Of a stretch of DNA of 64,000 bases, positions 3,342 to 64,000 are shown piece by piece. Source of the stretch: an uncultured Mycoplasma sp. (GTDB taxonomy: Bacteria; Bacillota_I; Bacilli_A; RF39; UBA660); assembly GCA_947642635.1 (NCBI GenBank), contig CANRTI010000004.1:5467-69466 (forward strand), written 5' to 3'. The translations under genes and the position numbers were made by a program. Under the pieces are notes generated by a model. It searched no databases, was not told the origin of the DNA, and saw only the letters and a program-made list of their open reading frames with translations. Within the stretch, counting starts at the first letter, position 1. Every line of letters starts with the position of its first letter.

Positions 3342-3416
3342 GTAGTCACCTATCAAAGTATATGTTTTAATTGAATAAAAAATGTTGATAACATCTCTAT
3401 TATCAACATATGGTAC

Positions 3417-4610
3417 TTAATTAGTTATTATAAATGGGTCAGTTATGGTACCACTTCCAGAAATTTCAATTGATGGTATTAAATAGAAAACTGGTCTAAC
3501 TGAATGTGTATAATCAAAAGGAATCCAATCGAGAGCACCACCAAAATGCACACGCCACCCACCGTAAGTGTTGCTATCACGCCGACCGTAACGCGTCATA
3601 ATCCATTCATGAATTCCATTTTCACTTATTGTTATATTATTTTGAGTTAAGTGCATCCAACTTGTTTTACATTTACTATACTGAACTCCCGTCCCTGGAG
3701 CACCGCTACAGTTTAATCCTGCTTTTTGATATGCAAAGTAATAATCTGCCATATACATTAATCCTATTTTTGCACTTACTGTTGTTGTAAATCCTTGCTC
3801 TTTTTGTACCATTTCTGTTACTGTTACATTTGTAGCTATATAAGGATCAGAACTGTATATATCTCCGTATTTCCAGTTTACTGTCTCTATTTTGTTTTCC
3901 CATCCGCTTGGTATGTATGTGGTGTTTCCTATAAATAGTTTTGTGTACTTTCCACCAGAAATACCATTTAATCCTTTATATAAGTCACTTTGAGGCCATT
4001 TGATATCTGAAGAAGATGTATTATGCCAGTAGAATATCTTATCACTATTTTGCTCTATTGGGGTTTTTTTTATAACTTTAAATCTCCCTGATTTATCTAT
4101 TCCAATTATTCGGTACATGTGTTTATCGGCATCATTTACACATGTATCTTTATTATTTGTTCCAAAGCATAAATAATTATCTGGATTAGTTCCATAATAT
4201 CTTTTAGATAACTCATCTTTAGCTACTTCAGTACTTGTAAAGTGTTCATCCATATAAAAAGTACAATATATTGTTTTATTACTTGTTACTGTTGGTTTAC
4301 CATTAGTTGTAGATATTGCCCCACTTACTATATTGCCATTAGCATCTTCACAAATACTTTTCTCTAAGTTTATTTTATAACCTTCTGGAAATTCTTTTCC
4401 ATCATATTTATCATAATTACCGTCTTCATTTTTGATATACATCGCAAATTGTTCTTTTTTGTTATTCTCTTTTTTTAAAACATTATTATTATTTTTTATT
4501 CTTTCTTTTTTATTAAATAATTTATTTCCACTAAATATTGTTATACATAATATTATTCCTAATATTACTACTATTATTTTCTTGGTTTTTATGTTGATAT
4601 CTTCACTCAT
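3417..4610 (-). CDS. membrane-anchored surface protein, paralog 1 of a 3-member family (conserved C-terminal ~250 aa domain ending ...SVRPVFYL..ISGSGTITDP)
   Basis: N-terminal TM anchor. The C-terminal domain aligns closely with the ORFs at 30347..31864 and 32506..33927. Confidence 0.6.
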   Translation of the reverse strand: MSEDINIKTKKIIVVILGIILCITIFSGNKLFNKKERIKNNNNVLKKENNKKEQFAMYIKNEDGNYDKYDGKEFPEGYKINLEKSICEDANGNIVSGAISTTNGKPTVTSNKTIYCTFYMDEHFTSTEVAKDELSKRYYGTNPDNYLCFGTNNKDTCVNDADKHMYRIIGIDKSGRFKVIKKTPIEQNSDKIFYWHNTSSSDIKWPQSDLYKGLNGISGGKYTKLFIGNTTYIPSGWENKIETVNWKYGDIYSSDPYIATNVTVTEMVQKEQGFTTTVSAKIGLMYMADYYFAYQKAGLNCSGAPGTGVQYSKCKTSWMHLTQNNITISENGIHEWIMTRYGRRDSNTYGGWRVHFGGALDWIPFDYTHSVRPVFYLIPSIEISGSGTITDPFIITN

Positions 4611-4639
4611 AATTAAGTCCTCTTTCTTATTTTTACTTA

Positions 4640-4666
4640 ATTATAAGATACCCCCCCCGGTTGCAA
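4640..4666 (-). promoter_or_regulatory. candidate sigma-A promoter of paralog 1 with G8 homopolymer in the -35/-10 spacer
   Basis: On the coding strand: TTGCAA, then CC+GGGGGGGG+TATCT (15 nt), then TATAAT, then the AGAGGA RBS and ATG at 4610. Confidence 0.4.
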
Positions 4667-4740
4667 GTTTTATTGTTTTTTTATCCGAATTTTTGTTAAA
4701 AAAAATATAGATAATTTTGATATCTATATTTTCTTTTAAA

Positions 4741-5202
4741 TTAATTAGTAGCTTTTTTAGTTTTTGTAGTTGTTGTTTTAGTTTTTTTAACTTCTTTTGG
4801 AGTATTATCTTCTAACTTAGCTGCGGTATTTTTCAACAATTCTGCGGTTTTAGTTTTAACTTTTTTAGCAGTTTTTTCAACAATTGGTGTTCCTTTTTGA
4901 ATTGCTAAATCAACTAATTCTTGAGCTTTAATTTTAATTTCTTTAGATTTGTCTATAATTAATTGTTTTGCAGTTTCTTTGTCTAAATCTTTAATAGTAT
5001 TTTGTAATTCTCTTGATTTTACAATAATAGCATTTTTAACTTCTACTAAATCAATTTCTTTAGCTTTTTCAATCAATTCTTCAATAGCTTTTCCTAAATC
5101 TTCTCTTGTTTCTTTGCCACTTTTAGGAGCAAATAATAATCCTAGTCCTAATCCAATTCCTGCTCCTAATAAGAAATGCCCTTTTTTACTCATTTTCTTC
5201 AC
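4741..5202 (-). CDS. YtxH-like general stress protein (DUF948 family, Gly-zipper N-terminus)
   Basis: GAGIGLGLGLLFAPKSGKETREDL N-terminus with a K/E-rich coiled tail. Adjacent to a ytxG-like gene. Confidence 0.55.
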   Translation of the reverse strand: MKKMSKKGHFLLGAGIGLGLGLLFAPKSGKETREDLGKAIEELIEKAKEIDLVEVKNAIIVKSRELQNTIKDLDKETAKQLIIDKSKEIKIKAQELVDLAIQKGTPIVEKTAKKVKTKTAELLKNTAAKLEDNTPKEVKKTKTTTTKTKKATN

Positions 5203-8333: not shown

Positions 8334-9950
8334 ATGAAAGATAAAATTTTGATTTTTGGGCATAAAAATCCCGATACAGATAGCGTTTGTAGTGCAATTA
8401 GCTTATCATATTTAAAAAATACTTTAGGATATAATACAGAACCTAGGATTTTATCAGGGATTAATGATGAAACTAAATTTGTTTTAAATCGTTTTGGTTT
8501 CAAGATACCGGAAATTTTAACAGATGTAAAGTTAAAAATTAGTGATGTAAATTATCACAAAGATTTTAATATTAGTATTAAAGAATCAGTTTATAATTCT
8601 TTTTTCGAAATGCAAAAAGCTAATATGAGTACAATTCCTTTAATAGATGAAAATGGAACATTTATGGGAGCTTTTGCTATGAAAGATATAGCTAAAAGAG
8701 AAATTTTAGAAGATAATAAAACTTTAAAAGCAACTTTTAGACATATTTTAGAAACTATCAATGGAGAAGAAATTCTAAAGTTTGATGACAAAATAAATGG
8801 AAATATTTTAAATATTGCGATAAGAAGTACAACTTTTAATACTAAGCATGATTTTAATAAAGATACTATTTTAATTGTAGGTGATCGACATGCTATAATT
8901 GAAGAAGCTCTTAAAAAAGGAATTAAACTTTTAATTATAACGAGTGATCATGAATTAAAAAATGAACATTTAGAACTTGCTAAAGAAAATAAAGTTAATG
9001 TTATTTATACAAGATTAGATTCATATGATACATTAATGAAAATTGGTTTTGCTAATACAATTGAAAATTATCGCTATACAAAAGATTTAGTATGCGTAAC
9101 TGATGAAACTGATGTAACTGAATTAAATGAAATTATTAATAAGACTAAGCATAGTTATTATCCAGTAATTGATAAAAATAATAAATGTTTAGGTTTAATT
9201 AAATTAGCAGATTTAAATGATTTTAAACCTAAAAAAGTTATACTAGTAGATCATAATCAAAAAGTTCAAAGTGCTGAGGGACTAGAAGAAGCTGAATTAG
9301 TAGAAATAGTTGATCATCATAATTTAGGAATTATTGGAACTAGTCAACCAATTAATGTTCGGAATATGACTGTAGGGAGTACTTGTACAATACTTTATGG
9401 TTTATTTGAAGAATATAATGTTGAAATTCCTCAAAATATAGCGGCATTACTTTTAAGTGGAATTATCTCTGATACCCTTCTTTTAAAAAGTCCAACTGCT
9501 ACAGAAACTGATAAAAAAGTATTAGATGAATTAATTAAAATAACTGGTTTAAATGCTGAAGAATATGCTATTGAAATGTTTAAAGCTAATGATTCAATTC
9601 CTAGTAAAACTATTAGTGAAGTATTAAATATTGATTGTAAGAAATATCAAGCTAATGAAAAAGAAATCGTTATCAATCAAGTAACAACTTTAAATTCAGA
9701 TGCTATCTTAGATAAACAAGCAGATTATATAAATTATTTAAATGAAGAATGTGCAAATAAAAATTATGAAGTTTTTGTATGTGTAATTACTGATATCTTT
9801 AAAAATGGTTCATATATTATTTTTAATGAAAATGCTTTAAATATTGTTCAAACTGCTTTTGGTGAAAATGTTCAAGAAGGAGATTTTATTCCAGAATTAG
9901 TTTCTCGAAAAAAACAAATTTTGCCACCTTTGATGGAAGCAATAAAATAA
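8334..9950 (+). CDS. ppaC: manganese-dependent inorganic pyrophosphatase, family II with CBS-domain insertion (CBS-PPase)
   Basis: DHH motifs (HKNPDTDS, DHNQ, DHH), a DHHA2 C-terminus and inserted CBS pair. Confidence 0.85.
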   Translation: MKDKILIFGHKNPDTDSVCSAISLSYLKNTLGYNTEPRILSGINDETKFVLNRFGFKIPEILTDVKLKISDVNYHKDFNISIKESVYNSFFEMQKANMSTIPLIDENGTFMGAFAMKDIAKREILEDNKTLKATFRHILETINGEEILKFDDKINGNILNIAIRSTTFNTKHDFNKDTILIVGDRHAIIEEALKKGIKLLIITSDHELKNEHLELAKENKVNVIYTRLDSYDTLMKIGFANTIENYRYTKDLVCVTDETDVTELNEIINKTKHSYYPVIDKNNKCLGLIKLADLNDFKPKKVILVDHNQKVQSAEGLEEAELVEIVDHHNLGIIGTSQPINVRNMTVGSTCTILYGLFEEYNVEIPQNIAALLLSGIISDTLLLKSPTATETDKKVLDELIKITGLNAEEYAIEMFKANDSIPSKTISEVLNIDCKKYQANEKEIVINQVTTLNSDAILDKQADYINYLNEECANKNYEVFVCVITDIFKNGSYIIFNENALNIVQTAFGENVQEGDFIPELVSRKKQILPPLMEAIK

Positions 9951-14331: not shown

Positions 14332-14406
14332 GCAGGTGTAGTATAATGGTTAATATATAACCTTGCCAAGGTTGAGATGGGAGTTCGATTCTCCTCACTT
14401 GCTCCA
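14332..14406 (+). tRNA. tRNA-Gly (anticodon GCC)
   Basis: Acceptor stem gcaggtg/cacttgc with a G-U pair. Anticodon loop ttGCCaa. T-arm gggagTTCGATTctcc. CCA is encoded. Confidence 0.75.
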
Positions 14407-14901: not shown

Positions 14902-16221
14902 ATGAGATGTGCAGTATATGTAAGAGTTAGTACAGACGACCAAAGAGATAATGGTTATTCTATTGATTCACAACTTCGTATGATTAAAGAATATTGTGAG
15001 AAAAACGATTATAGTATTGTTGATGTTTATAATGATGCAGGTCATTCTGGAAAAGATTTAATGCGACCAGAAATGCAAAGATTACTTGCAGATATTAAAT
15101 CTAAAAAGATTGATAAGTTAATTGCTATTAAAGTAGATAGACTTACAAGAAACAACTATGATGGATTTTGGCTTTTAAATTACTGTGAGGAACACGATGT
15201 TAAAATAGAACTTATTTTAGAGCCTTATGATGTATCTACTGCTAATGGTGAAATGATATTCGGTATGAATTTAGTATTTGGTCAAAGAGAAAGAAAAGAA
15301 ATTGGAGCAAGAACAAAAAGGGCAATGGAAGAAATGGCTTTAGAGCATATTCACCCTAGTAAAGCACCTTACGGGTATGTAAGAAATAAAGATACAGGAC
15401 ATTTAGAAATAGAGCCTATTGAAGCCCAAGTCGTTAAAGAAATATTTAAACTTTGCCAAGAGGGAAACTCTACTAGAAGCATTGCTACGATTATGGAAGA
15501 CGACAATGCTTATTTAAAAAATGGGAAGTGGAGAGCCGATAGAGTTTATAAAATACTAACTAATTCTATCTATATTGGTATATTTGAATACGGAAAATAT
15601 AAGAGAAAACAACAAGATATCTTAAGAGTAAAAGACTATTGTGAGCCAATTATAGATGAAACAACTTGGAATGCTACTAGAAATGTATCAGTGAAAAATA
15701 AACATTCAAACTATGGAGAGTTTATTCATTTATTTTCAGGATTAGTAAAATGTCCAATATGCGGTAGTATTATGGCTTCATCTGAATCTTTTAAATATCC
15801 AAATGGAAAACAAAAAGTTTATTACCATTTAAGATGTAAAAACCATAATTGTAGTGGATATGGACTTCATTACAATACCGAGAAAATAGAAGTTAAATTA
15901 AGAAGAGTATTAGAAGAATTAACTATCTTTATGATGGGAACAAATAATGAAATTATCACTTGTAATTCTACAAAAAGTAATGATGTAAAAGAAATAGAAA
16001 AAGCCATTGAAAAATTAAAGTTACAGGAAAAAAGACTAGTTGATTTATATTTAAGTTCGACCCTAGATGTTGAAACAATTAACCATAAAAATGATGTTAT
16101 AAAAAAAGAGATTGATAAACTAAACAAAAAGAAAACTACTCTTGATCCAAATAACGAATCAAAAGAATATACAACAGAACTACTAAAAAAATTAGACTGT
16201 AAAAAGGAAAATGACAAGTAA
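14902..16221 (+). CDS. large serine recombinase (resolvase/invertase N-domain + recombinase + zinc-ribbon + coiled coil), TnpX-like
   Basis: N-terminal AVYVRVSTDDQ with the catalytic Ser. C-terminal CPICG...C..H..C zinc ribbon and coiled coil. Placed adjacent to a tRNA gene. Confidence 0.85.
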   Translation: MRCAVYVRVSTDDQRDNGYSIDSQLRMIKEYCEKNDYSIVDVYNDAGHSGKDLMRPEMQRLLADIKSKKIDKLIAIKVDRLTRNNYDGFWLLNYCEEHDVKIELILEPYDVSTANGEMIFGMNLVFGQRERKEIGARTKRAMEEMALEHIHPSKAPYGYVRNKDTGHLEIEPIEAQVVKEIFKLCQEGNSTRSIATIMEDDNAYLKNGKWRADRVYKILTNSIYIGIFEYGKYKRKQQDILRVKDYCEPIIDETTWNATRNVSVKNKHSNYGEFIHLFSGLVKCPICGSIMASSESFKYPNGKQKVYYHLRCKNHNCSGYGLHYNTEKIEVKLRRVLEELTIFMMGTNNEIITCNSTKSNDVKEIEKAIEKLKLQEKRLVDLYLSSTLDVETINHKNDVIKKEIDKLNKKKTTLDPNNESKEYTTELLKKLDCKKENDK

Positions 16222-22373: not shown

Positions 22374-23117
22374 ATGCCTAATATCCATAGTAGTATTAAT
22401 TTTGGCTTAGTTAATATTCCTGTTTTAATGAATCCTATTATTAAAAATAATGATACATCTTTTAATCAATTACATGAAAAATGTAAAACTAGAATAAACT
22501 ATGTTAAATATTGTCCGAAGTGTAAAATTAAAATTAATGAGAAAGATATTATTAAAGGTTATCAATATGAACAAGATAAATATATTGTTTTTAGTAAAAA
22601 TGAATTAGATAATTTAAAACCTGAAAATGAAAAAGAAATTGATATTATCGCATTTGTACCTTTAAAAGATATTGATCCTATTTATTTTGAAAAAAGTTAT
22701 GATATTGATGCAGAAGGTAAAGGAAAAGCTTACTTTTTATTTTGCGAAGCTTTGAAAAGAACTAAACTAGTGGCATTAGCTAAAACAGTAATTGGTAGCA
22801 AATTTTATTATTGTATTTTAAGATTTAATGGGGACAACATAATTATGACTACTTTATATTTTGAAGAAGAAATTAATGAAAAAAAAGATAATAGTAATTA
22901 TAAAATTAACGAAAAAGAAATTAAATTAGCTACTGAATTAATAACGTCTTTAAAAGGAAAATTTGAGCCGCAAAAATACATTGATGAATATCAAGATAAT
23001 TTAAAACAAGCAATTGAAAATAAAATTGAAGGAAAAAGTGTTAAGAGTACTAAAAAGAAAAATAAAAAACAAATTACTGATTTAATGACTGCTTTAGAAA
23101 AGAGTTTAAAAAAATGA
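22374..23117 (+). CDS. ku: Ku protein (NHEJ)
   Basis: SINFGLVNIPV N-terminus and the Ku core. The ORF track starts 4 codons upstream. Confidence 0.8.
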   Translation: MPNIHSSINFGLVNIPVLMNPIIKNNDTSFNQLHEKCKTRINYVKYCPKCKIKINEKDIIKGYQYEQDKYIVFSKNELDNLKPENEKEIDIIAFVPLKDIDPIYFEKSYDIDAEGKGKAYFLFCEALKRTKLVALAKTVIGSKFYYCILRFNGDNIIMTTLYFEEEINEKKDNSNYKINEKEIKLATELITSLKGKFEPQKYIDEYQDNLKQAIENKIEGKSVKSTKKKNKKQITDLMTALEKSLKK

Positions 23118-23995
23118 GTATTTGGACGAATAGAAATTGGACTCCTATGTTATTACAAGAAATTCCTAAACCTTTTAATTCTAAAGATTATTTATATGAA
23201 TTAAAGTTTGATGGAATAAGAGCTGTTATTTTTGTAAATAAAAAAGAAATAAAAATCCAAAGTCGTAATCAACAAAATTTAACTAATCTATTTCCCGAAC
23301 TACAAGAGATTAAGAAACAAGTGACAAAAAATGTCATTTTTGATGGAGAAATTATTGCATTACAAAATGGATTACCATCATTTAGGAATATTCAAAAGAG
23401 ATTACATTTAAAAAATTCTACTAAAATATTAAATGCAAGTAGAGATAATCCCGTAGTATTTATGGCTTTTGATATTCTTTATGAAAACAAAGAATTAATT
23501 AATAATAATTTAATTATTAGGAAACAATATTTGCAAAAATATGCTGATAGTGATTGTTTTATTAAAACTAAGGCCCAAGAAAATAATGGTTGTGAATTAT
23601 TTCGAAAAGTTAAAAAGTTAGGTTTAGAAGGAATTGTTGCCAAAAACAAAAATAGTACTTATCATATTGATAAAAGAACTGATGACTTTATTAAAATAAA
23701 AAATATAAAGCGTGATGAATTTGTTATTGGAGGATATGAGTTAAAGAAAAATGAACAAATATCTTTGGCACTTGGAGAAATGCATAATAAAAAATTAGTA
23801 TTTGTAGGAAAAGTAACTATTAGAAAAACTAATAAAATTTATTCTAAAATATTGCAAGCCAAACCTAGTGAAAATTATTTTACAGATTTTAATGAGAATA
23901 TAACTTATATTAAACCTACTCTAACTTGTCATGTCGAATATTTAGAAAGAACTATTAATAATCATTTAAGACATCCAATATATAAAGATATTTAG
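23114..23995 (+). CDS. ATP-dependent DNA ligase (LigD ligase domain only)
   Basis: KxDGxR adenylation motif (ELKFDGIRAV). Overlaps the ku stop codon. Confidence 0.75.
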   Translation: MSIWTNRNWTPMLLQEIPKPFNSKDYLYELKFDGIRAVIFVNKKEIKIQSRNQQNLTNLFPELQEIKKQVTKNVIFDGEIIALQNGLPSFRNIQKRLHLKNSTKILNASRDNPVVFMAFDILYENKELINNNLIIRKQYLQKYADSDCFIKTKAQENNGCELFRKVKKLGLEGIVAKNKNSTYHIDKRTDDFIKIKNIKRDEFVIGGYELKKNEQISLALGEMHNKKLVFVGKVTIRKTNKIYSKILQAKPSENYFTDFNENITYIKPTLTCHVEYLERTINNHLRHPIYKDI

Positions 23996-24005
23996 AAGGG
24001 ATTAT

Positions 24006-25388
24006 ATGAAAAAACTAGAAAAATATAATAGTAAACGAAACTTTAAGAAAACTAAAGAACCACAGGGAATAATAAAACCAAAGAAAAACAAAATGTTAAA
24101 ATATGTGATACAACATCATCTAGCTAGAAAAGATCATTATGATTTACGTTTAGAATATAATGGAGTTTTTATAAGTTTTGCTGTTCCAAAAGGTCCCTCA
24201 TTTAATCCTAAAGATAAAAGATTAGCGATTAAAGTTGAAGATCATCCAATAAGCTATGGTAATTTTGAAGGGGTAATTCCTACTGGGGAATATGGAGCTG
24301 GGATAGTAATGATTTTCGATAAAGGATACTGGAAACCACTAAAAGATACTGTTCCAGATTTTGATAATGGTCCAGTAAAATTTACGATTAAAGGAAAAAG
24401 ATTGCAAGGTAATTGGTCGTTAGTTAAATTAAAAGATTCTAATTGGTTATTAATTAAAGAAAAAGATGAATTTGCTAATAATAATGATATAAAAAAATAT
24501 CAAACTAGTATTAAAACTAATCGAACTATGGATGAGATTAAAAATAATGTTAAAAAATCTAGTTTTAGTGAGTTAACTAGTCCTGATAAAATAATTTTTC
24601 CTAAAGATAAAATTACTAAAAAAGAAATTTACGATTATTATCAATTAGTTAGTAAAAGAATGCTACCATTTTTGGATAATCGATTGATAAGTACAGTAAG
24701 GTGTCCTAATGGAATAGAAAAAGAAATATTTTTTATGAAACATTTAAATAATCCTAGTAAAAATTTAGGACAGAAAAAAATTCGAAATAAACAAGATGAA
24801 AAAACTAATTATTATTATATTAAAAATGATGTTGGCTTATTAGAAGAAGTACAAATGAATAGTTATGAATTTCATATTTGGGGGTCTTTACAAAATTATT
24901 ACAAAAAACCCGATATGATTGTTTTTGATTTAGATCCTGATGAAAGATTATCTTTAAAAAAAGTAAGAGATGGAGTTAGAGATTTAAAAAGTATCTTAGA
25001 TAATTTACATTTAATTTCTTATCTTAAAACTAGTGGTGGAAAAGGTTATCATATTTATGTTCCAATTAATTTACCTTCATTTAAAAGAGGTGAAAAAATT
25101 GCTGAAGATATTGCTAACTTAATGACTTTAAATTGGCCCGATAAATATACAACAAATATTCGTAAAGATAAAAGACAAAATAAAATATTTATTGATTATT
25201 ATCGAAATAAATTAGGAGCTACAAGTGTTTGTCCTTATTCTTTAAGATTAAAAGATAAAGCAACAGTATCTTGTCCTATTTTTTGGCATGAATTAGATAA
25301 AATTAAACCCCAAAGTATAACTATTAAAAATATAAAAGAACGTTTAAAGAAAAAAGATCCTTGGGCTGATTTTTTCAATCATTCGTAA
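24006..25388 (+). CDS. LigD 3'-phosphoesterase + polymerase/primase domains (no ligase domain)
   Basis: PE-domain HHLARKDHYDLRLE motif at the N-terminus. Pol domain motif GGKGYHIYVP at the C-terminus. Confidence 0.75.
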   Translation: MKKLEKYNSKRNFKKTKEPQGIIKPKKNKMLKYVIQHHLARKDHYDLRLEYNGVFISFAVPKGPSFNPKDKRLAIKVEDHPISYGNFEGVIPTGEYGAGIVMIFDKGYWKPLKDTVPDFDNGPVKFTIKGKRLQGNWSLVKLKDSNWLLIKEKDEFANNNDIKKYQTSIKTNRTMDEIKNNVKKSSFSELTSPDKIIFPKDKITKKEIYDYYQLVSKRMLPFLDNRLISTVRCPNGIEKEIFFMKHLNNPSKNLGQKKIRNKQDEKTNYYYIKNDVGLLEEVQMNSYEFHIWGSLQNYYKKPDMIVFDLDPDERLSLKKVRDGVRDLKSILDNLHLISYLKTSGGKGYHIYVPINLPSFKRGEKIAEDIANLMTLNWPDKYTTNIRKDKRQNKIFIDYYRNKLGATSVCPYSLRLKDKATVSCPIFWHELDKIKPQSITIKNIKERLKKKDPWADFFNHS

Positions 25389-30022: not shown

Positions 30023-30330
30023 AATAACAGAGTAATAGATAAGTTACGTATAACTTAATCATCTCTGTTTTTAATTTAGACAAAATATTAAATCATTTTA
30101 TCTTAGATAATCTTTGTCTTCTATCTTCCCAAAATTATAGCCATAACCATAATATCTTTCAAGTTATAGAAGGCTGGGCGAACCGAATTCGTATTAGTCA
30201 AATTAGGATTGTTGACATTGCCGTTCGAATTCACATCCCACGCATTGTAATTGCCACCATTATAACCGTAACGCGTGTATTCTTTATCAAGACTACCTTA
30301 TATTTATTATAAAGTAATTTTAATTGAAGT
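30021..30330. repeat. ~300-bp cassette repeat copy A (terminator hairpin + 3' gene-fragment + conserved 3'UTR)
   Basis: ~90% DNA identity with 32181..32490 and 34245..34530. Confidence 0.8.
30121..30300 (-). pseudogene. 3'-terminal fragment of surface-protein paralog (no start codon)
   Basis: Translates to ...DKEYTRYGYNGGNYNAWDVNSNGNVNNPNLTNTNSVRPAFYNLKD*, homologous to the paralog C-terminus (SVRPVFYL). Frameshifted at the position of the copy-B ATG. Confidence 0.55.
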
Positions 30331-31864: not shown

Positions 31865-31959
31865 ATACCTCTTATTATTTTTATATTAACCCAAAATAGG
31901 TTAAAAGTCAATAACCCATTTTAGGTTATGTTATTATGCGATTAGGGAATAATAAAATT

Positions 31960-32187
31960 ATGAATAGATTAAAAGAAATTAGAGAAGATAACGATTTAAA
32001 TCAATCTCAAGTGGCTAAAATTTTAGATATGAGCCAAACTGGTTATTCAAAATATGAATGCGAAACAAATGATATTCCTACAGAAATATTAAAAAAACTA
32101 GCTGATTATTATAATACTAGTATTGATTATTTATTATATGAAACTGATGTCCGCAATCGTTATCCCAAAAGTTTATTAAAAAAATAA
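31960..32187 (+). CDS. XRE-family HTH transcriptional regulator (divergent from paralog 2)
   Basis: HTH_3 motif QSQVAKILDMSQTGYSKYE. Likely start is MNRLKEIR; the ORF track starts 8 codons upstream. Confidence 0.7.
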   Translation: MNRLKEIREDNDLNQSQVAKILDMSQTGYSKYECETNDIPTEILKKLADYYNTSIDYLLYETDVRNRYPKSLLKK

Positions 32188-32490
32188 CAGAGTAAATAGG
32201 CAATCTCGTAAGATTAACCATCTCTGTTTTTAATTTAGATAAAATATTAAAATCATTTCATCCTAGATAATCTTTGTCTTCTATCTTCCCAAAATTATAG
32301 CCATAACCATAATATCTTTCAAGTTATAGAAGGCTGGGCGAACCGAATTCGTATTATTCAAATTCCAATTGTTGACATTGCCGTTCGAATTCACATCCCA
32401 CGCATTGTAACCGCTGCCATTATAACCGTAACGCGTGTATTCTTTATCAAGACTACCTATATTCATTATAAAGTAATTTTATTTGAAGTT
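32181..32490. repeat. cassette repeat copy B
   Basis: DNA identity with copies A and C. Confidence 0.8.
32281..32466 (-). pseudogene. 61-aa ORF = 3' fragment of surface-protein paralog (intact ATG only in this copy)
   Basis: Translates to MNIGSLDKEYTRYGYNGSGYNAWDVNSNGNVNNWNLNNTNSVRPAFYNLKD.., homologous to the family C-terminus. Confidence 0.5.
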
Positions 32491-34025: not shown

Positions 34026-34253
34026 ATGAATAGATTAAAAGAAATTAGAGAAGATAAAGATTTATTGCAATCTGATATTGCCAAAATACTTGGAATGAGC
34101 CAAAATGGTTATTCTTTATATGAAAATGGTGAACGAAAAATTCCAGTTGATAAATTGCGAATTTTGGCAGACTTTTATAATACTAGTATTGATTATTTAT
34201 TATACGAAACTGATGTCCGTAATCGTTATCCCAAAAGTTTATTAAAAAAATAA
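34026..34253 (+). CDS. XRE-family HTH transcriptional regulator (divergent from paralog 3)
   Basis: HTH_3 motif. C-terminal 25 aa are identical to the other XRE copy, but the recognition helix differs. Confidence 0.7.
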   Translation: MNRLKEIREDKDLLQSDIAKILGMSQNGYSLYENGERKIPVDKLRILADFYNTSIDYLLYETDVRNRYPKSLLKK

Positions 34254-34530
34254 CGGAGTTGCTAGGTTATCTCGTAAGATTAGCCATCTCCGTTTTTAAT
34301 TTGGATAAAATATTAAATCATTTAATCCTAGATAGTCTTTGTCTCCTATCTTCCCAAAAATATAGCCATAACCATATTATCTTTCAAGTTATAAGAGGCT
34401 GGGCGAACCGAATTCGTATTATTCAAATTGGTATTGCCGACATTGCCGTTCGAATTCACATTCCACGCATTGTAATTGCCGTTGCTATTCCGACCGTAAC
34501 GCGACTATTTTCTTTAGCAAGACTACCCTA
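34245..34530. repeat. cassette repeat copy C (more diverged, frameshifted fragment)
   Basis: DNA identity with copies A and B. The hairpin shows compensatory changes. Confidence 0.75.
34346..34530 (-). pseudogene. frameshifted 3' fragment of surface-protein paralog
   Basis: Homologous to the copy-B ORF but with a 5-nt indel. Confidence 0.45.
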
Positions 34531-49751: not shown

Positions 49752-52439
49752 TTAATTTATAACTATCTTTTTAGTTAATGTAATAGGTTTTTCGTTTTTA
49801 TCTAGAACATGTAATTTTAATTCATATTCCCCAGCAGTTAAAACATAATTTAATATTTCAATAGATAATTTTTTAGGAGTATCATTATCAATTGAATATA
49901 ATAGTTTTGCTGGTAATGAACCACCACTTATTACAGCTAATTCAATATCATCACTAGAGACCCAACCAATTGTTTCTTTAAAATCAATTGTAATATATTT
50001 ATTATTTCTTACTTCTAGATTAGTAATTAATTCGTTCTCAGTTTCATCTGGAACATCGATAGTTTCTGGGATTTTATAATGATCGACAAAACCAGTTCGA
50101 TAATTACCATCATAGTCTACAAATAAAGCCCAAACTCTAGTATTTCTAGTTACATTATAACCAGTTAAATCTAAAGTAAGAGTATTTGGTCCTGCATTCA
50201 AAGCTTGTTGTTTGATATTATTATCGCCATTTTTAACGTTTTCAATAACATCATTAGCAAATGGTGTTGATGAGTTATAATCGTATATACCACCATTCCA
50301 CTCATAAATTCCATAGTAAACTATTCCTGCTTCATCAGAGTTAAAATTGAAGATAGCCGTATTTTCATCAACTCTTTTAACATTATCAACAGCACCAGTT
50401 ATTGTTGGAGGATCGAAATGTGAAACAAAACTACTTTCAATTTTTTCTGTATCAGATATTTGAATTTTAACTGTATATTTGTTATCTTTATGACCATAAT
50501 TATCAGGTACAATTATTATATATGTTAATAAATCAGGACTAGTTATAAATTTAGCACCCTTAATAGTTAAGTTCTTTTGAGTTGGACAAATAATTTCAAA
50601 ATCTTCTAATGTTAATTTTTTATCTGGTACTTTATTCAAAGTAAAGACAAATCGATTAGACATTTCTTCACTTGCGGATACTATTTGGTAATTACTTGGA
50701 TCTTTAGTTACTACTTCTCCAGGAATATTAAAAGGTCCTTTTTCTTTAGAAATATTTTCAAAATATCCTTCAATTACATAATACAAATTATATGATTTGT
50801 TTGGTTCTAAATTATTGATTGTAATAGCATTGTAGCCAACTTTTACGGCTCCTTTTTGACCATTTTCTTTAATAAAATTAGGAGTTAGCGCTTCTCTAGT
50901 AGTAACATCTTCTAAAATATAGTAGATATAACCACCTTCATCAACACCGTATAATTCTAAATTAGCAGTTGTCTCAGTTGTTCTTTCCACTACTACTTTA
51001 TTAACTGTTGGATTAGCATAATCAGTATCAAAATCTTTACTAATTATATTACCATTTGGTAAAGTCAAATATAAAGCATAGGAATCATTTTTGAAATATG
51101 ATGTTGTTAAAGTATATGTTTTATTATCACTTGTACTTAAATTATATAATGTAATACTTTTACCAGCATTACAAATAACTGATAAATCTTTAATTGTTAA
51201 ATTAACAGCTTTACTTAAAGTAAAAGTAACACTTCCTTGAGAAGTTGAAATAGCACTTTCAATTCGATTTTCATTTTCAGAACGAATTAAAATATTGTCA
51301 TTTTCGCCTTCTACTATTGGTTTTTCAACAATTGGAGTATATATTCTTGTATTACTAGCACTTATAATAGCACTATTAATTGAACCTGTTCCCGAAACAA
51401 TTGTATTTTCACCTAAATTGTAAAAATTATTAATTATATTACCATTATTAATGCGGATAGTACTTTGTTCATTATTCATAAAAGTATTTACTTCACCATT
51501 AACAATAATTGTAGAATCAGCGCTTCCATTAGTTAACATATCAACTGTTTGATTAACAGAAACTAAACCAGATGTTTTAAATGTAGCTTTTTGGATTGGA
51601 ACATTTAAAATAACTTCATTTGCATCATTAACTGTAACATTAGATATTGTATTTTCACCATTAATCTCAATGTTATTATTTATTACAGCTGTTTCAATTT
51701 TACTACCATTTTGTAAATTAATTGTAGCTCCTTCTAAAGATTTATTCATGCTATTAAAAGAAGATTTTCGAAAAGCATATGTTCTTAATATTTGTTTATT
51801 GGTAGTAAGAGATGTTATATTAGAATTAATAATATCTAATTGATAATTGTTTGGTTCAACTAAAACTAACCCATTGTTTATTTCAATAGTGTCTAACACT
51901 ATTTTAGAATTACTATCAATATTAGCACTAATTGTAATTGAATTATATTTTTGGTTATTAACTTTATAAATACCATTTTGAACCATATCATTAGTAATTA
52001 TTAAATCTTCTAACTTTTCTTCTTCACTAGGTTTACTAGGTTCTTCTATTTGTGGCGGATTATTTGGTTCGTTTTCTTCTGGATTATTAATTGAAGGGTT
52101 TTCAGGAGCTGGTTTATTAACTATTGGTTTAGAATTATTATTTGGTTTTGATGATGGCTTTAAATTTGAAGAATTATTGAAATTATCATTTTCATTTATT
52201 TCATCATCTGGTTCATCTATATTTAAATTATCATCATTATTGTTATTTGTTGAATTATCAAAGTCATCTAAATTATTATTATTATTATCGTTTACCGGAT
52301 TTTTAGTATCTTGTACTTGATTATTATTATCTAATTTATTTTGATTTACAAAAAAATAAGTACATCCACCAATTACTCCGATTACTCCAATACAAGTCGC
52401 AGTTATTATTTTAATCTTTTTTTCCATTAATATAAACAC
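49752..52439 (-). CDS. large N-terminally anchored surface protein with Asn/Pro-rich low-complexity linker
   Basis: TM anchor, N/P-rich region and beta-rich repeats. Confidence 0.5.
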   Translation of the reverse strand: MFILMEKKIKIITATCIGVIGVIGGCTYFFVNQNKLDNNNQVQDTKNPVNDNNNNNLDDFDNSTNNNNDDNLNIDEPDDEINENDNFNNSSNLKPSSKPNNNSKPIVNKPAPENPSINNPEENEPNNPPQIEEPSKPSEEEKLEDLIITNDMVQNGIYKVNNQKYNSITISANIDSNSKIVLDTIEINNGLVLVEPNNYQLDIINSNITSLTTNKQILRTYAFRKSSFNSMNKSLEGATINLQNGSKIETAVINNNIEINGENTISNVTVNDANEVILNVPIQKATFKTSGLVSVNQTVDMLTNGSADSTIIVNGEVNTFMNNEQSTIRINNGNIINNFYNLGENTIVSGTGSINSAIISASNTRIYTPIVEKPIVEGENDNILIRSENENRIESAISTSQGSVTFTLSKAVNLTIKDLSVICNAGKSITLYNLSTSDNKTYTLTTSYFKNDSYALYLTLPNGNIISKDFDTDYANPTVNKVVVERTTETTANLELYGVDEGGYIYYILEDVTTREALTPNFIKENGQKGAVKVGYNAITINNLEPNKSYNLYYVIEGYFENISKEKGPFNIPGEVVTKDPSNYQIVSASEEMSNRFVFTLNKVPDKKLTLEDFEIICPTQKNLTIKGAKFITSPDLLTYIIIVPDNYGHKDNKYTVKIQISDTEKIESSFVSHFDPPTITGAVDNVKRVDENTAIFNFNSDEAGIVYYGIYEWNGGIYDYNSSTPFANDVIENVKNGDNNIKQQALNAGPNTLTLDLTGYNVTRNTRVWALFVDYDGNYRTGFVDHYKIPETIDVPDETENELITNLEVRNNKYITIDFKETIGWVSSDDIELAVISGGSLPAKLLYSIDNDTPKKLSIEILNYVLTAGEYELKLHVLDKNEKPITLTKKIVIN

Positions 52440-58445: not shown

Positions 58446-59726
58446 TTAATTCTTAAACTCTTTTAGTAAAAAATTCATATCAAAAACTGGGATATGATTA
58501 ATAATATTTTGACAATTACTATATTTCGGAGCATTTGATTCAAATAGTGCATATAACCATTTTTCTTTAATAGTAATTTGTTCTAAAAGAGGTGGTAATT
58601 CATAAGTCAATTTAAAAAGATTAGGATTGGAATAATTAGTAATTTTTTCATCATACTTATAAATATGCAAATATGATGAGTTATTTCGGCCATAAGAAAT
58701 ACTTAGCAATAAATATATTTGATTATTATTTTGATAAAAAGTTATACCTTGAACTTGAGATGGCACTTCAAAACTTTTAAGAAATTTTAAATTTATATTT
58801 TTTTTAGTTTTAACTATTTGAAATTTTTTGATAATTCCAGTTTGATTTTTCGAAAAATTCCCAATGTATAAATATTTATCATGAATTGTAAGATAATCAA
58901 TAGTATTTTGAGATTTATTTTGATAATCAACTAAATTATTACTAAGTCCTGTAAACTGATATTTAGCTTGAACTTGTTGATTAGTAAAAAAATCTTTAAC
59001 TGTATATGCATTTAACATTCCATTTTCGGCAGGAATCCATAATAATTTATTATCTTGATCATATTGAATACCACCAACATGAGAAGAATTATCTAATTCA
59101 ACTTTATTAATAATTTGACCATATTTACTTAAAACATAACATATTGATTTAAAATTTTTTTCATGATAGGCAGTAATAAAAATAAAATTGTTAACTAAAG
59201 TTATGCCTTGAGGCACAATTTCCTCTTCTTGCGGAATTTTAATGTTACTCTCATGTAAAATATGAAAAAAATCGGGATATTTATTAAAATTAAACACCAT
59301 TTTATTAGTAAAAGTATTTTTAGTCTTCAAAAAATAACACTTTCCTTTAGTGATTTCTAAAAAATTATTATCTTTAATATAATTAGTAGATGTACTAGTT
59401 GAATTACAATTTGCTAAACGAGAGATTACAAGGGTACATAAATATTTTTGTAAGCCATTAGTTTTAGAGTCATTAATTATCTCCATTAAAATGGGAATAA
59501 CAGGAGCTTTAAGATTTTGAATATTTTGGTAATATTCATTGTTTATGTAATTAAAATCCTCATCACTTAGCCAATCAGTTGTCTTCTCAATTTGTTTTAA
59601 ATTATAAATTACTATTTTTTTTAAAATAGCTTTTTCTCTTTGCAAATCTTTTTTGGAATAAATAAAAAATATTCCTAACACAATTATAATTAATAATACA
59701 CATATTTTTTTCATAAATACCAACAT
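58446..59726 (-). CDS. hypothetical secreted/anchored protein
   Basis: N-terminal signal/TM segment. Confidence 0.4.
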   Translation of the reverse strand: MLVFMKKICVLLIIIVLGIFFIYSKKDLQREKAILKKIVIYNLKQIEKTTDWLSDEDFNYINNEYYQNIQNLKAPVIPILMEIINDSKTNGLQKYLCTLVISRLANCNSTSTSTNYIKDNNFLEITKGKCYFLKTKNTFTNKMVFNFNKYPDFFHILHESNIKIPQEEEIVPQGITLVNNFIFITAYHEKNFKSICYVLSKYGQIINKVELDNSSHVGGIQYDQDNKLLWIPAENGMLNAYTVKDFFTNQQVQAKYQFTGLSNNLVDYQNKSQNTIDYLTIHDKYLYIGNFSKNQTGIIKKFQIVKTKKNINLKFLKSFEVPSQVQGITFYQNNNQIYLLLSISYGRNNSSYLHIYKYDEKITNYSNPNLFKLTYELPPLLEQITIKEKWLYALFESNAPKYSNCQNIINHIPVFDMNFLLKEFKN

Positions 59727-59902: not shown

Positions 59903-62900
59903 TTATGCTTTTTGTTTTAATAAATAAATTGATGTTCCTAAAACAATAACTAAAGAACAAACAATAGTTAAAATTGTGTAATATTTTTGATCAGTTTCTG
60001 GTTTAGAATTGGCCACAGGACTCCAATTACTTAATACATCATATGATATAACGTATTTACCAAGATCTTTCGCTTTAATTTCAATATCAGAACCATTTAT
60101 AGTAAAATCTACAGCTGTTAAAGTGTTATCATCATTAATTTCATAAATTCCTCTTATTTTTTTAGTTTCATTTATTTTAAAGCTTATTTTTAACAATTCT
60201 TCTGAAATAATATTTAATTTTTCAAAATCATTACTTGCTAAATAAATATCAAAATATTCACTAACTTTGCCAACTTTGTCTTTTAATTCTTCAGGTGTTA
60301 AAAATCTTTCTACTCTTAACATTGTCGTGTCATTTATTAAATTGTTAGGCACTTCAACTTTAACATTATTTAAAGCATATTTTTTATATCCTGCAACTGG
60401 TGTATTCGGATTATCAGTTGAGGGGATATCAGGAATGCTTGGTTTATTTGGAATACTTGGTTGGTTTGGCGTACCTGGTTTTGAACCATTTGGCTGGTTT
60501 GGTTTATTATTTCCTGATTGATTTGGAGGATTTGGGGTAGTAGGTTTATCAGTTGGATTATCAACTACTGGTGGATTAGGATTATCCGGGTTATGATTAG
60601 GTTTATTATCTTCATTACCATCAGGTATGGAGTCAATAATTGCCGTTAATTTTCCTTCATTCCCAGCTTTATCATAGAAATAAATATCAAATTGACCTAC
60701 TTCAGTAAATTCATATATGCCATTACCAGTTTGGAAAGTTATTTCTTCACTGGGATTTATAACTTGAACTATAACTTTACCATTTTCTTTAACATAACTT
60801 AGTTCAGCAGTTGGAGCAATTTTATCAATCCAATCTACAACGGCTGTTACATATCCAATGTTACCATTAGTATCAACATATTGAAAATCAAAACTACCAT
60901 TCTCAGTAAAAGTATAAGTATTATTACCATTATTACTAATTATTTTATAACCATCTTCGATTTCAAGAACAACTTCAACATCTTGGTTAGTTAAAGTTGA
61001 TGGATTATATTTAAAAGTATGTTTTGGTAGTTTGGTAATCCATGTAACTTTAGCAGTAGCACTACCTTTATTTCCTACTTTATCAACAAATTCGAAAGTA
61101 AATTCGCCATTATCATTAAAGGTATAAACATCTTTGCCAGCATTATTTAATATTGTTACTTCTTCACTTGGTTGTAATTTGGCTGTAACTGGTTGGTCTG
61201 TTAATGTAGCAGGAGTATATTCAAATTCAGCAGTTGGAGCAACTTTGTCTATCCAATCAACACTGGCTGTAATAAAACCTACATTACCATTATTATCAGC
61301 ATATTGGAAATCAAAACTACCATTTTCAGTAAAGGTATAATTCTTACTACCATTATTGCTAATAACGCGATATCCATCTTCAATTTCAAGAACAACATCC
61401 ACATTTTGATTAGTTAAAGTTGATGGATTATATTTAAGATTATATTTTGGCATTCTTGCAATCCAAGAAACATTAGCAGTGGCACTTCCAATATTTCCAG
61501 CCGTATCAACAAACTCAAAAGTAAATTCGCCATTATCATTAAATGTATAAACATCTTTACCATCATTATTTAATATTGTTACTTCTTCACTTGGCTGTAA
61601 TTTTGCTGTTACTGGTTTGTCTGTTAAATGTGTTGTACTATATTCAAATTCAGCAGTTGGAGCAACTTTGTCTATCCAATTTACAGCAATAGTTTCTGTC
61701 CCAATATTACCTAATTCATCCATAAATTCTAATTTGAAACTATCATTTTTTAAAAAAGTAATTGTTTGACTTTTATCTACAGGATTTTCAACAACTTCTA
61801 CATCTTTGGATAATATAGTTACTTTTTTATCAAAAGTTAATGTAGCAACAACATCTTCATTAGTTACTTCCATTGTACTAAAAACAACTGTTGCCTTAGG
61901 CGGTTCTTTATCAATCCAGTCAACATAAGCTCTAGTTGAACCACGATTACCATCTTCATCAACAAATTCAAAAGTAAATTCTCCGTTTTCAGTAAAAGTA
62001 TAAGATGTTTTTCCGTTATTATTTGTAACAGTAACTGGTCTTGTAAAATTAACTAATTCCGCAACGACATTTTTATTTGTAGGTCTTACAATATTGTAAT
62101 TTACATCTGCTCTCGGTGTTTCATTTACAATAACATTTTCATATAATTTTATGACTGATACTGCTAAAGTTAGGTAATCACCTTCATATACTGATTCGCA
62201 TTCAAATTTAACATATAATCCTTTTTTAGCTTCCGGAAAATCAATATGTTTTAAAGAATCGTTATTTCCTAAATTAGTTTTAGTTGCTGCAAGCTCCCAA
62301 TTTTTATTATCCATACTAACATAAATTTTAACATTTCTCGCTCTACCATAAGGAATAAAACCAATATATTTAGCATTTTTATCTGGTACATAATCTAGGC
62401 CCGAAATGTAGCGTGGTTGATCTAATTTAATAGTAACATAAGCTGGCATTATTCCATGTTTTGATCGCCAATAAGTATTAATATCACCATCTAATATATT
62501 ATCTTTATTTCCAGTTTGAGTGGCATTTACTTCAAAAACACTGAGATTTTTTGATTGAATATACCATTTAGTATCATCAGAATTGTTTTCAGTAAATGTG
62601 TAATATACAGGATCACTAGCTATTTGAGTTCCGGCAGCAATTATTCTAACATAAACTCGCTTATTTCCACTAAATATTGGATTAGTATTAGCAAATGAAT
62701 TCCAACCATCTTTAGGATCTAATGTCCATTCCATTTCGTTTGTAGCGCCAATCATGCGGTCTTCTTCATCATTAATTGAAATTACACCAGTTGGAAATGT
62801 TCTCTTAGTAATATCAATTGTATAAATATTAGCATCTGTTAAAGGTAATCCAGAAATATGAACTTTAATGTCATTATCAACAGTTATACTATCAATTTCT

Positions 62901-64000
62901 TCTTGAGTAAGTTCTATGGTATGTTCAAAACAATCTTTCCATGTTTTACCACCATCTAAGCTATAACTCCAATTAACTTGCGAACTTTGTAGTTGTTTTG
63001 AAAGAACAATTTTTCTTGCATTTGTGCCTGTAAAGGAGAAAGAAGCTATTTCAGAATTTATTTCTCCTAATAATGCTTGGGCTACAACTGGTACTTCTTT
63101 ATATTGTAATGAATTACTAGCGGTTGCTTTAGTAGCTTCTCGTAATGTTTTATTTTGTAAAAGCATTAATCTTCCGCGATATTCTGGTGAAGTGATTTTA
63201 GTTCCTATACGACGAGTTAAATCATACATCGGTAGAGGATGATAAGTTAAAACTTCACTAATTTCTTCGGCTAGTTCGATTAAATCTGCTTCGCTTTTAG
63301 TTTCATCTTTAATATATAAATTAACTAAACCAAGCCATGCATCCCAATGGATAATTTCTTCTTCTAAAGTATCACGATAAATTTGTTCTAATTTAGCAGG
63401 ATTATCTTTATAAACATTTTCTAGTAACATAATTAATTCTGCTTTTTCGTATTTTTCATATTCATTTTGAGCTTCTTGAGAAAGGAAGAAATAAGAAGCT
63501 GATTTTATAGTTCCTGTGTTAGTTACGACTCCACTACTAAAATTTCCCCAATCATTAGGCATTCTGGAATATCCTTGGGTATTTGCCCAAGCCGTAGCCG
63601 CAACATTATAAGCTAATTGCCAAGCTCCTTTACCACCAACATTATAATAATAAATATAAGCAGCATGAGCGGGTTGTCCTACGACACTGGCTGGTATTCC
63701 CCAAACTCCATAAAGATTAGCAGCAGTTTTAGACAATCCTCCACAAACAGCTCCTTCTTCAAAAACTATCCATAATTTTGGTTTTCCAGATTGATAAGTA
63801 ATATTATAAGCTGATAGATTGTATTTTTGATCCCATTTAGAATAATTTTCTGCACTGTAATATTGGGGTCTATAATAACTATAACCAGTCCTGTATGTAA
63901 TATATTTATAAGGATTGAAGCGATCATTTGTATTTGGATATTTCTTCAAAGAATAATCATGAAGCCATTTTATTTCTTCATCATCTATATTTACATGCAT
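59903..64000 (-). CDS. giant surface protein (partial; N-terminus outside window): transglutaminase-like core, F5/8 type C (discoidin) domain, tandem Ig-like repeats, Pro-rich linker, C-terminal TM anchor
   Basis: Transglutaminase-like GAVCGGLSK...GIPASVVGQPAHAAY. Discoidin-like GDINTYWRS. Repeated ~90-aa units (WIDKVAPTAEFEY...). PNPP linker and a C-terminal TM anchor. Confidence 0.6.
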   Translation of the reverse strand: MHVNIDDEEIKWLHDYSLKKYPNTNDRFNPYKYITYRTGYSYYRPQYYSAENYSKWDQKYNLSAYNITYQSGKPKLWIVFEEGAVCGGLSKTAANLYGVWGIPASVVGQPAHAAYIYYYNVGGKGAWQLAYNVAATAWANTQGYSRMPNDWGNFSSGVVTNTGTIKSASYFFLSQEAQNEYEKYEKAELIMLLENVYKDNPAKLEQIYRDTLEEEIIHWDAWLGLVNLYIKDETKSEADLIELAEEISEVLTYHPLPMYDLTRRIGTKITSPEYRGRLMLLQNKTLREATKATASNSLQYKEVPVVAQALLGEINSEIASFSFTGTNARKIVLSKQLQSSQVNWSYSLDGGKTWKDCFEHTIELTQEEIDSITVDNDIKVHISGLPLTDANIYTIDITKRTFPTGVISINDEEDRMIGATNEMEWTLDPKDGWNSFANTNPIFSGNKRVYVRIIAAGTQIASDPVYYTFTENNSDDTKWYIQSKNLSVFEVNATQTGNKDNILDGDINTYWRSKHGIMPAYVTIKLDQPRYISGLDYVPDKNAKYIGFIPYGRARNVKIYVSMDNKNWELAATKTNLGNNDSLKHIDFPEAKKGLYVKFECESVYEGDYLTLAVSVIKLYENVIVNETPRADVNYNIVRPTNKNVVAELVNFTRPVTVTNNNGKTSYTFTENGEFTFEFVDEDGNRGSTRAYVDWIDKEPPKATVVFSTMEVTNEDVVATLTFDKKVTILSKDVEVVENPVDKSQTITFLKNDSFKLEFMDELGNIGTETIAVNWIDKVAPTAEFEYSTTHLTDKPVTAKLQPSEEVTILNNDGKDVYTFNDNGEFTFEFVDTAGNIGSATANVSWIARMPKYNLKYNPSTLTNQNVDVVLEIEDGYRVISNNGSKNYTFTENGSFDFQYADNNGNVGFITASVDWIDKVAPTAEFEYTPATLTDQPVTAKLQPSEEVTILNNAGKDVYTFNDNGEFTFEFVDKVGNKGSATAKVTWITKLPKHTFKYNPSTLTNQDVEVVLEIEDGYKIISNNGNNTYTFTENGSFDFQYVDTNGNIGYVTAVVDWIDKIAPTAELSYVKENGKVIVQVINPSEEITFQTGNGIYEFTEVGQFDIYFYDKAGNEGKLTAIIDSIPDGNEDNKPNHNPDNPNPPVVDNPTDKPTTPNPPNQSGNNKPNQPNGSKPGTPNQPSIPNKPSIPDIPSTDNPNTPVAGYKKYALNNVKVEVPNNLINDTTMLRVERFLTPEELKDKVGKVSEYFDIYLASNDFEKLNIISEELLKISFKINETKKIRGIYEINDDNTLTAVDFTINGSDIEIKAKDLGKYVISYDVLSNWSPVANSKPETDQKYYTILTIVCSLVIVLGTSIYLLKQKA
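60790..61700. repeat. near-identical intragenic tandem DNA repeats (~570 bp x2, ~85-90% identity) inside giant surface-protein gene
   Basis: Direct comparison of 60800..61240 against 61240..61690. Confidence 0.7.

Follow-up and report, generated by a model that had tools for sequence, protein, structure and literature searches.

A length-variable run of guanines in the window, the 64,000-nt stretch of DNA analysed here, probably serves as a slippage-driven phase-variation (contingency) switch within the sigma-A-type promoter of a gene for a predicted lectin-like surface protein. Direct reading of the sequence places this G8 homopolymer at positions 4651-4658 on the minus strand (C8 on the plus strand, read as CCCCCCCC), inside a 15-nt spacer at 4646-4660 (−) composed of CC, G8 and TATCT (CC-GGGGGGGG-TATCT). 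The spacer is bounded by a −35-like TTGCAA hexamer at 4661-4666 (−), with 4/6 matches to TTGACA including the TTG, and by a fully matching (6/6) TATAAT −10 hexamer without a TG extension at 4640-4645 (−), an arrangement in which, as in promoters of the porA type, a homopolymer of at least ~7 nt lies between recognisable −35 and −10 hexamers. The position and strand of the tract, together with the two hexamers and their 15-nt spacing upstream of the gene starting at 4610, had been proposed in the first-pass annotation and agree exactly with the minus-strand sequence. Its impression that an 8-bp G:C run is striking at ~26% GC is likewise borne out by run counts, as G/C runs of 3, 4, 5, 6, 7 and 8 nt occur 258, 55, 4, 0, 0 and 1 times, respectively, the tract being the sole run of at least 6 nt in the 64 kb (window GC 26%; next longest run, 5 nt) against an iid expectation of 0.014 for runs of at least 8 nt. 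A dinucleotide-shuffle control, which retains the GG dinucleotides of the tract itself, gives a mean of 0.40 for G7, and across ~45 kb of related loci every G/C run of at least 7 nt is a copy of the same tract.

The tract-bearing hexamers are followed by a ribosome-binding site, AAGAAAGAGGA, at 4618-4628 (−), located 11 nt past the −10 hexamer and 7 nt before the ATG at 4610, for a total −10-to-ATG distance of 29 nt, and are preceded by an A-rich, UP-element-like stretch, AACAAAAATTCGGATAAAAAAACAATAAAAC, at 4667-4697 (−), which we consider a putative UP element. The controlled gene (3417-4610, −) encodes 397 aa. Upstream of it, a YtxH-family gene (4741-5202, −; PF12732 match) ends in a terminator-like hairpin at 4698-4737 (−), whose MFE structure has a 16-bp stem and a U-run (z = −5.1 over the full 156 nt), and a second terminator-like hairpin, ATGTTGATAA-N7-GTTATCAACAT with a T-run, can be read directly from the sequence 3' of the controlled gene at 3376-3409 (−). 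Hairpins on both sides of the 397-aa gene define it as a monocistronic unit that needs a promoter of its own. TTGCAA/TATAAT is the top-scoring hexamer pair (10/12 matches) of the 130-nt intergenic region at all tract lengths tried, and its TATAAT is the sole perfect −10 hexamer there; a promoter consensus scanner that takes spacers of 16-18 nt only leaves the pair unlisted in the window G8 allele and ranks it first in the natural G9 allele of contig L226. The tract-bearing pair is the sole good promoter candidate for the 397-aa gene and would be the promoter in use, with the transcription start site downstream. Involvement of the G-tract in a terminator or other RNA structure was rejected, as the MFE fold engages only four of its G's, in weak pairing to a distal UUCGG, and the strong hairpin is located further upstream; an Rfam search of the intergenic region found neither a riboswitch nor a leader.

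To compare natural alleles, we recovered the locus from independent metagenome assemblies by exact-protein look-ups with the two upstream neighbours and with family members, leaving out one adaptor-contaminated fragment (L240). The first-pass annotation had called for a comparison of tract length between isolates, and the length does differ: the 16 intact copies of the promoter cassette carry 7 (n = 1), 8 (n = 3) or 9 (n = 7) G's or an interrupted form, GGAGGGGGG (n = 5), giving spacers of 14, 15 or 16 nt between a TTGCAA that is unchanged in 16/16 copies and a TATAAT that is unchanged in all. At locus 1, downstream of the YtxH-family gene, G7 is found in L242, G8 in the window and in L001/L225, G9 in L226, L227, L228, L229, L239 and L249, and the interrupted form in L230, L231, L233, L234 and L251, and the contig end of L232 (= L250) falls inside the tract, which may be a hint of length switching within a population. 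At locus 2, downstream of PRK and GAPDH genes, L236 carries G9 and L243 carries G8, the latter being weak evidence at 1x coverage. Across the ~100-nt cassette the 16 copies differ at five SNP sites and the tract is the sole indel site; a T8 run and an A7 run, 25-55 nt away from the G-tract, control internally for homopolymer error and are constant in all copies. Similarly, when 12 locus-1 contigs are aligned over 2.8 kb, no indel besides the tract is present in ~1.9 kb (the upstream region and the first ~400 nt downstream), and the remaining gaps all fall within the divergent gene body of L239.

These data bear directly on whether the length differences might be sequencing or assembly errors around a true tract of one fixed length, an explanation that we regard as highly improbable. 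Homopolymers are error-prone, the contigs were assembled from short metagenomic reads at a coverage of 1-15x, the L232 contig terminates within the tract, and single-base homopolymer calls could be errors in the low-coverage L242 (4.4x) and L243 (1x) assemblies. Against this, G8 recurs in the window and L001, which are separate assemblies distinguished by a SNP, G9 is present in 7 assemblies from at least five projects, and neither the T8 and A7 runs adjacent to the tract in the same contigs nor the ~1.9 kb shared by the 12 contigs show any other length change outside the L239 gene body. Furthermore, the tract is found with identical flanks in >15 assemblies from different studies and is therefore not an assembly artefact.

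As in porA-type systems, tract length differs among closely related strains whose flanks are conserved. The window shares 99.99% identity with L001 over 7.2 kb, and an A/G SNP at 4618, the last position of the ribosome-binding site and 33 nt from the tract, provides a flanking marker for tract-length haplotypes. In the near-clonal haplotype group to which these two belong, each tract length is found with each SNP base (8/A in the window, 8/G in L001, 9/A in L226 and 9/G in L228), a pattern that takes either repeated change at the tract or at the SNP, or a recombination event inside the 33 bp. Of the two sites, the homopolymer would be the likelier to change recurrently, and the distribution argues for recurrent slippage. 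The earlier expectation that slippage would shift the spacer to 16-17 nt holds for 16 nt, the modal spacer of the natural copies, but not for 17 nt, as a G10 allele is absent among the 16 cassette copies. Moreover, 12 of the 16 copies share a total length of 9 and observed lengths span 7-9 only, so switching may be slow or its range narrow. On the minus strand, positions 4650-4658 read as G8 followed by T, a 'GnT' motif, and T-to-G substitution at such motifs is reported to be raised >1000-fold in other bacteria (PMC12344412); such a substitution would extend the run without altering the spacing, and none is seen in the 16 alleles. A scan of viral contigs for the cassette returned no match, scans of metagenome and genome contigs with the 17-mer CAATAAAACTTGCAACC returned chance matches only, the pattern being too short, and the window ORFs that were scanned against Pfam include neither mutS nor mutL.

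The allele series also allows us to weigh a fixed structural element, either a rigid GC-rich spacer or a CCGG-containing regulator site, of which G8 and G7 would be degenerative forms in a gene that is being lost. The constancy of the modal length at 9 would suit such an element, as would the linkage of G7 to a damaged gene: in L242 the G7 allele precedes an ORF (344-1431) that is broken by a 1-nt deletion into 100 aa and 243 aa. This broken ORF could be a pseudogene or an assembly error at 4.4x coverage, and the co-occurrence of G7 and a frameshift fits a loss of selection after silencing, with plain decay fitting equally well. Spacer-bound regulation also exists in the family, some relatives having an operator-like spacer palindrome and adjacent XRE regulators. 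Nevertheless, a fixed element is very unlikely: the G8 ORFs of the window and L001 are intact and identical to, or a few SNPs from, those of G9 strains, the four length/SNP combinations imply change in both directions or recurrent events, and the 397-aa gene itself has no adjoining regulator gene.

The proposed switch appears to travel as part of a portable unit, the cassette, which extends from ~45 nt upstream of the −35 hexamer through the ribosome-binding site and the first ~45 codons. A near-identical cassette at locus 2 precedes the paralog P0002, which is 67% identical overall to the window protein, and the homology between locus 1 and locus 2 (L236, L243) starts at the A-rich stretch 5' of the −35 hexamer. 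The P0002-like 404-aa gene body is found both at locus 1 of another strain (L239, 777-1991) and at locus 2 (L236, 3001-4215, and L243), a distribution that indicates putative cassette-style recombination among family members. Near-identity of the cassette at two loci and before a different gene body suggests that selection keeps the promoter and the tract together.

This conservation also weighs on a further reading, in which the tract is a mutational hotspot without switch function, its polymorphism being neutral because another start is used or because the promoter is insensitive to spacers of 14-16 nt. Only three lengths occur among the copies, and a second, weaker hexamer pair, TTAACA-16-AACAAT (9/12 matches), does lie further upstream; however, its −10 hexamer (AACAAT) is poor and it overlaps the terminator tail. 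A run of 8-9 G's is strongly disfavoured in this genome and yet kept in every copy, at two loci and before divergent gene bodies, and the interrupted GGAGGGGGG allele holds the spacing exactly. We consequently consider a neutral hotspot distinctly unlikely and retain the phase-variation switch as the preferred interpretation.

In other family members the 5' cassette differs, with TTGACT-17-TAAAAT or TAATAT promoters and operator-like palindromes, and a homopolymer is absent from the family promoters of P0003/P0004 (L235, L237, L238), P0020 (L241) and window paralogs 2 and 3. Among the sequences compared, the tract is a conserved property specific to the promoter of one subfamily, apparently recombined onto different gene bodies. 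A common promoter, TTGACT-[A ATGGTTAAATAACCAT]-TAAAAT, is present at L237 2880-2930, L238 190-240 and L241 2380-2430, and its 17-nt spacer contains a perfect, operator-like 16-nt palindrome. TAACC...GGTTA palindromes flank or overlap the promoters of paralogs 2 and 3 (TTGACT-17-TAATAT/TATTAT), and small genes at 31936-32187 (+) and 34026-34253 (+), Cro/C1-like and XRE-looking by appearance only, are divergent from these two paralogs. Most family members look repressor-controlled rather than tract-controlled.

In the mechanism that we propose, slipped-strand mispairing at replication would lead to the gain or loss of one G, and each such step would move both the TTGCAA-TATAAT distance and its rotational phasing by one bp. 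Sigma-70/sigma-A promoters depend strongly on a 17±1-nt spacer, so the G9 (16 nt) and G10 (17 nt) forms would be expected to be transcriptionally competent and the G8 (15 nt, as in the window) and G7 (14 nt) forms weak or off. The 15-nt spacer of the window is probably a minority, low or off state, and the modal length of 9 fits 16 nt as the expressed state, as does the interrupted GGAGGGGGG allele, in which the long run is broken and the 16-nt spacing retained and which would look like a naturally locked, functional state. We infer that spacer length alters expression, that there are on and off lengths, and that switching between them is frequent and reversible. A population would then always hold cells with and without the displayed protein, and such mixed display could help the population to withstand phages, antibodies or other selection directed at the surface.

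As to the product, the 397-aa protein has no match in Pfam (E <= 0.01) or NCBIfam and ~1,285 homologs, the few with a source name deriving from 'Bacilli bacterium' MAGs. The AF2 model, built from a 50-sequence alignment with a mean pLDDT of 86, comprises a helix at residues 7-48 (membrane anchor and stalk), a beta domain at 55-122 and a globular domain at 134-397 that ends in the ...SVRPVFYL variable-region motif. A Foldseek search against the PDB returned one significant match, the IgA peptidase of Thomasclavelia ramosa (9qa6, E = 1.5e-5), whose N-terminal domain is annotated as DUF6273 (PMC12402451), and among the targets of phage diversity-generating retroelements (DGRs), DUF6273 domains have a C-type-lectin-like character (PMC10743442). 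PF19789 (DUF6273) is matched by 1 of 50 family members. Paralog 3 scores 27.0 bits against a gathering cutoff of 23.5, and the 397-aa gene remains without a match at E <= 0.01. The 397-aa protein is thus predicted, from the structural model, to be membrane-anchored with an extracellular DUF6273/C-type-lectin-like domain. The variable surface-protein family named in the first-pass annotation is more narrowly a predicted membrane-anchored family with a DUF6273/C-type-lectin-like domain, a type of domain that DGRs diversify; the variable region of the 397-aa gene itself is static.

The C-terminal hypervariable ...SVRPVFYL region of the family aligns with Asn-codon-rich elements that resemble DGR template repeats, three copies of which (30090-30298, 32250-32458 and 34315-34523, all on the minus strand; 78-95% identical) adjoin paralogs 2 and 3. 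One copy translates as ...SRYGRNSNGNYNAWNVNSNGNVGNTNLNNTNSVRPA..., the 61-aa ORF called for one of them reads ...YTRYGYNGSGYNAWDVNSNGNVNNWNLNNTNSVRPAFYNL, every copy has a conserved ~100-nt tail, and the repeated module order is template-like repeat, divergent XRE gene, paralog gene. P0004 mismatches the third template-like copy at 18/50 A and 7/98 non-A positions, and the variable region of the 397-aa gene mismatches the best window repeat at 25/41 A and 28/89 non-A positions; not one of the window's three variable regions derives cleanly from a repeat by changes at A alone. The window, L001/L225 and L226 have one and the same variable region in the 397-aa gene, the exact protein is present on 7 contigs, and P0002 and P0129 differ by two non-A changes in their variable regions. 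For a DGR reverse transcriptase, six-frame translation of the window yielded no stop-free YxDD motif context, and Pfam scans detected no RVT in 36 of the 49 window ORFs of at least 120 aa (all those of at least 283 aa bar 8334-9950). The 397-aa gene resembles DGR variable proteins in its ...SVRPVFYL region and C-type-lectin-like domain and differs from them in its non-A mismatches and strain-identical variable region, on which grounds an active DGR target was rejected; to judge from sequence, it is a paralog of DGR-type targets and not a demonstrated active one.

Elsewhere in the window, two minus-strand ORFs without a Pfam match, of 895 aa (49752-52439) and 426 aa (58446-59726), and an ORF of >1,364 aa (59903-64000, −) that has an F5/8 type C (discoidin) domain and continues past the window end may represent further surface proteins. 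A large serine recombinase with Resolvase, Recombinase and Zn-ribbon domains is encoded at 14902-16221 (+), ~500 nt from a tRNA at 14332-14403 (+) that is the only Rfam match in the whole window, and the two together may mark the edge of an integrated element. An ATP-dependent DNA ligase adjoins LigD phosphoesterase and primase-polymerase genes at 23114-25388 (+), forming an NHEJ module.

The closest characterised systems are the poly-G promoters of porA and of Treponema pallidum tp0126/tpr. In Neisseria meningitidis porA, a poly-G tract lies between the −35 and −10 hexamers, and one-base slippage off the optimum lowers or abolishes transcription (PMC7864442). The tract described here likewise lies inside the −35/−10 spacer of a predicted surface-protein gene, but its host is an uncultured low-GC Bacilli lineage, whereas that of porA is a Gram-negative pathogen. 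The porA tract measures 9-11 G, in contrast to a shorter tract of 7-9 G in the window family, with spacers of 14-16 nt versus 15-17 nt for porA. In T. pallidum, poly-G tracts lie between the −35 and −10 hexamers of tp0126, an OmpW homolog, and control the promoters of tprE/G/J/L; tracts of ~8 nt within or adjacent to promoters of paralogous surface-protein genes vary in length among and within strains and modulate transcription (PMC7864442). The T. pallidum genome has 53% GC and poly-G is common in it, unlike the tract here, which is unique at 26% GC and confined to one paralog subfamily. In the vlp system of Mycoplasma hyorhinis, which encodes a family of variable surface lipoproteins with repetitive C-termini, each paralog has a poly-A run in its promoter spacer, and a conserved 5' promoter/leader cassette containing the spacer homopolymer is reused before divergent gene bodies at several loci. 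As a promoter cassette with a homopolymer that paralogs have in common, vlp is the nearest analogue, and it too belongs to a low-GC Firmicutes-derived lineage; the window family differs from vlp in its poly-G tract, its predicted membrane-anchored lectin-fold products, and the ordinary 17-nt promoters, palindromes and XRE regulators of most of its paralogs. In another Firmicute, Streptococcus pyogenes M28, an intergenic homopolymer indel is reported to alter virulence-gene transcripts (PMC7098570).

The mechanism itself is known and will not surprise a specialist; what is new is the instance, its host and gene family both being unusual. Contingency loci based on homopolymers are textbook examples in a few pathogens (Neisseria, Haemophilus, Campylobacter, Helicobacter, Treponema and the mycoplasmas), and to our knowledge they have hardly been documented in uncultured commensal Firmicutes/Bacilli. 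The present case can be read from metagenomes alone, with a unique tract, a clean promoter, alleles of 7, 8 and 9 G's and an interrupted, 'locked' form, and it connects a putative switch with a family of proteins that is otherwise associated with hypervariation by DGRs. It is conceivable, though on balance unlikely, that one lineage layers three devices on this lectin-like family, namely DGR-type hypermutation, gene-body shuffling and the poly-G promoter cassette. Were that so, 'phase-locked' GGAGGGGGG alleles would mark lineages selected for constitutive expression, and in paralogs whose template has been lost, switching on and off would take the place of diversification by a DGR. The tract offers a cheaply testable marker for surface phase variation in an unculturable gut-type organism.
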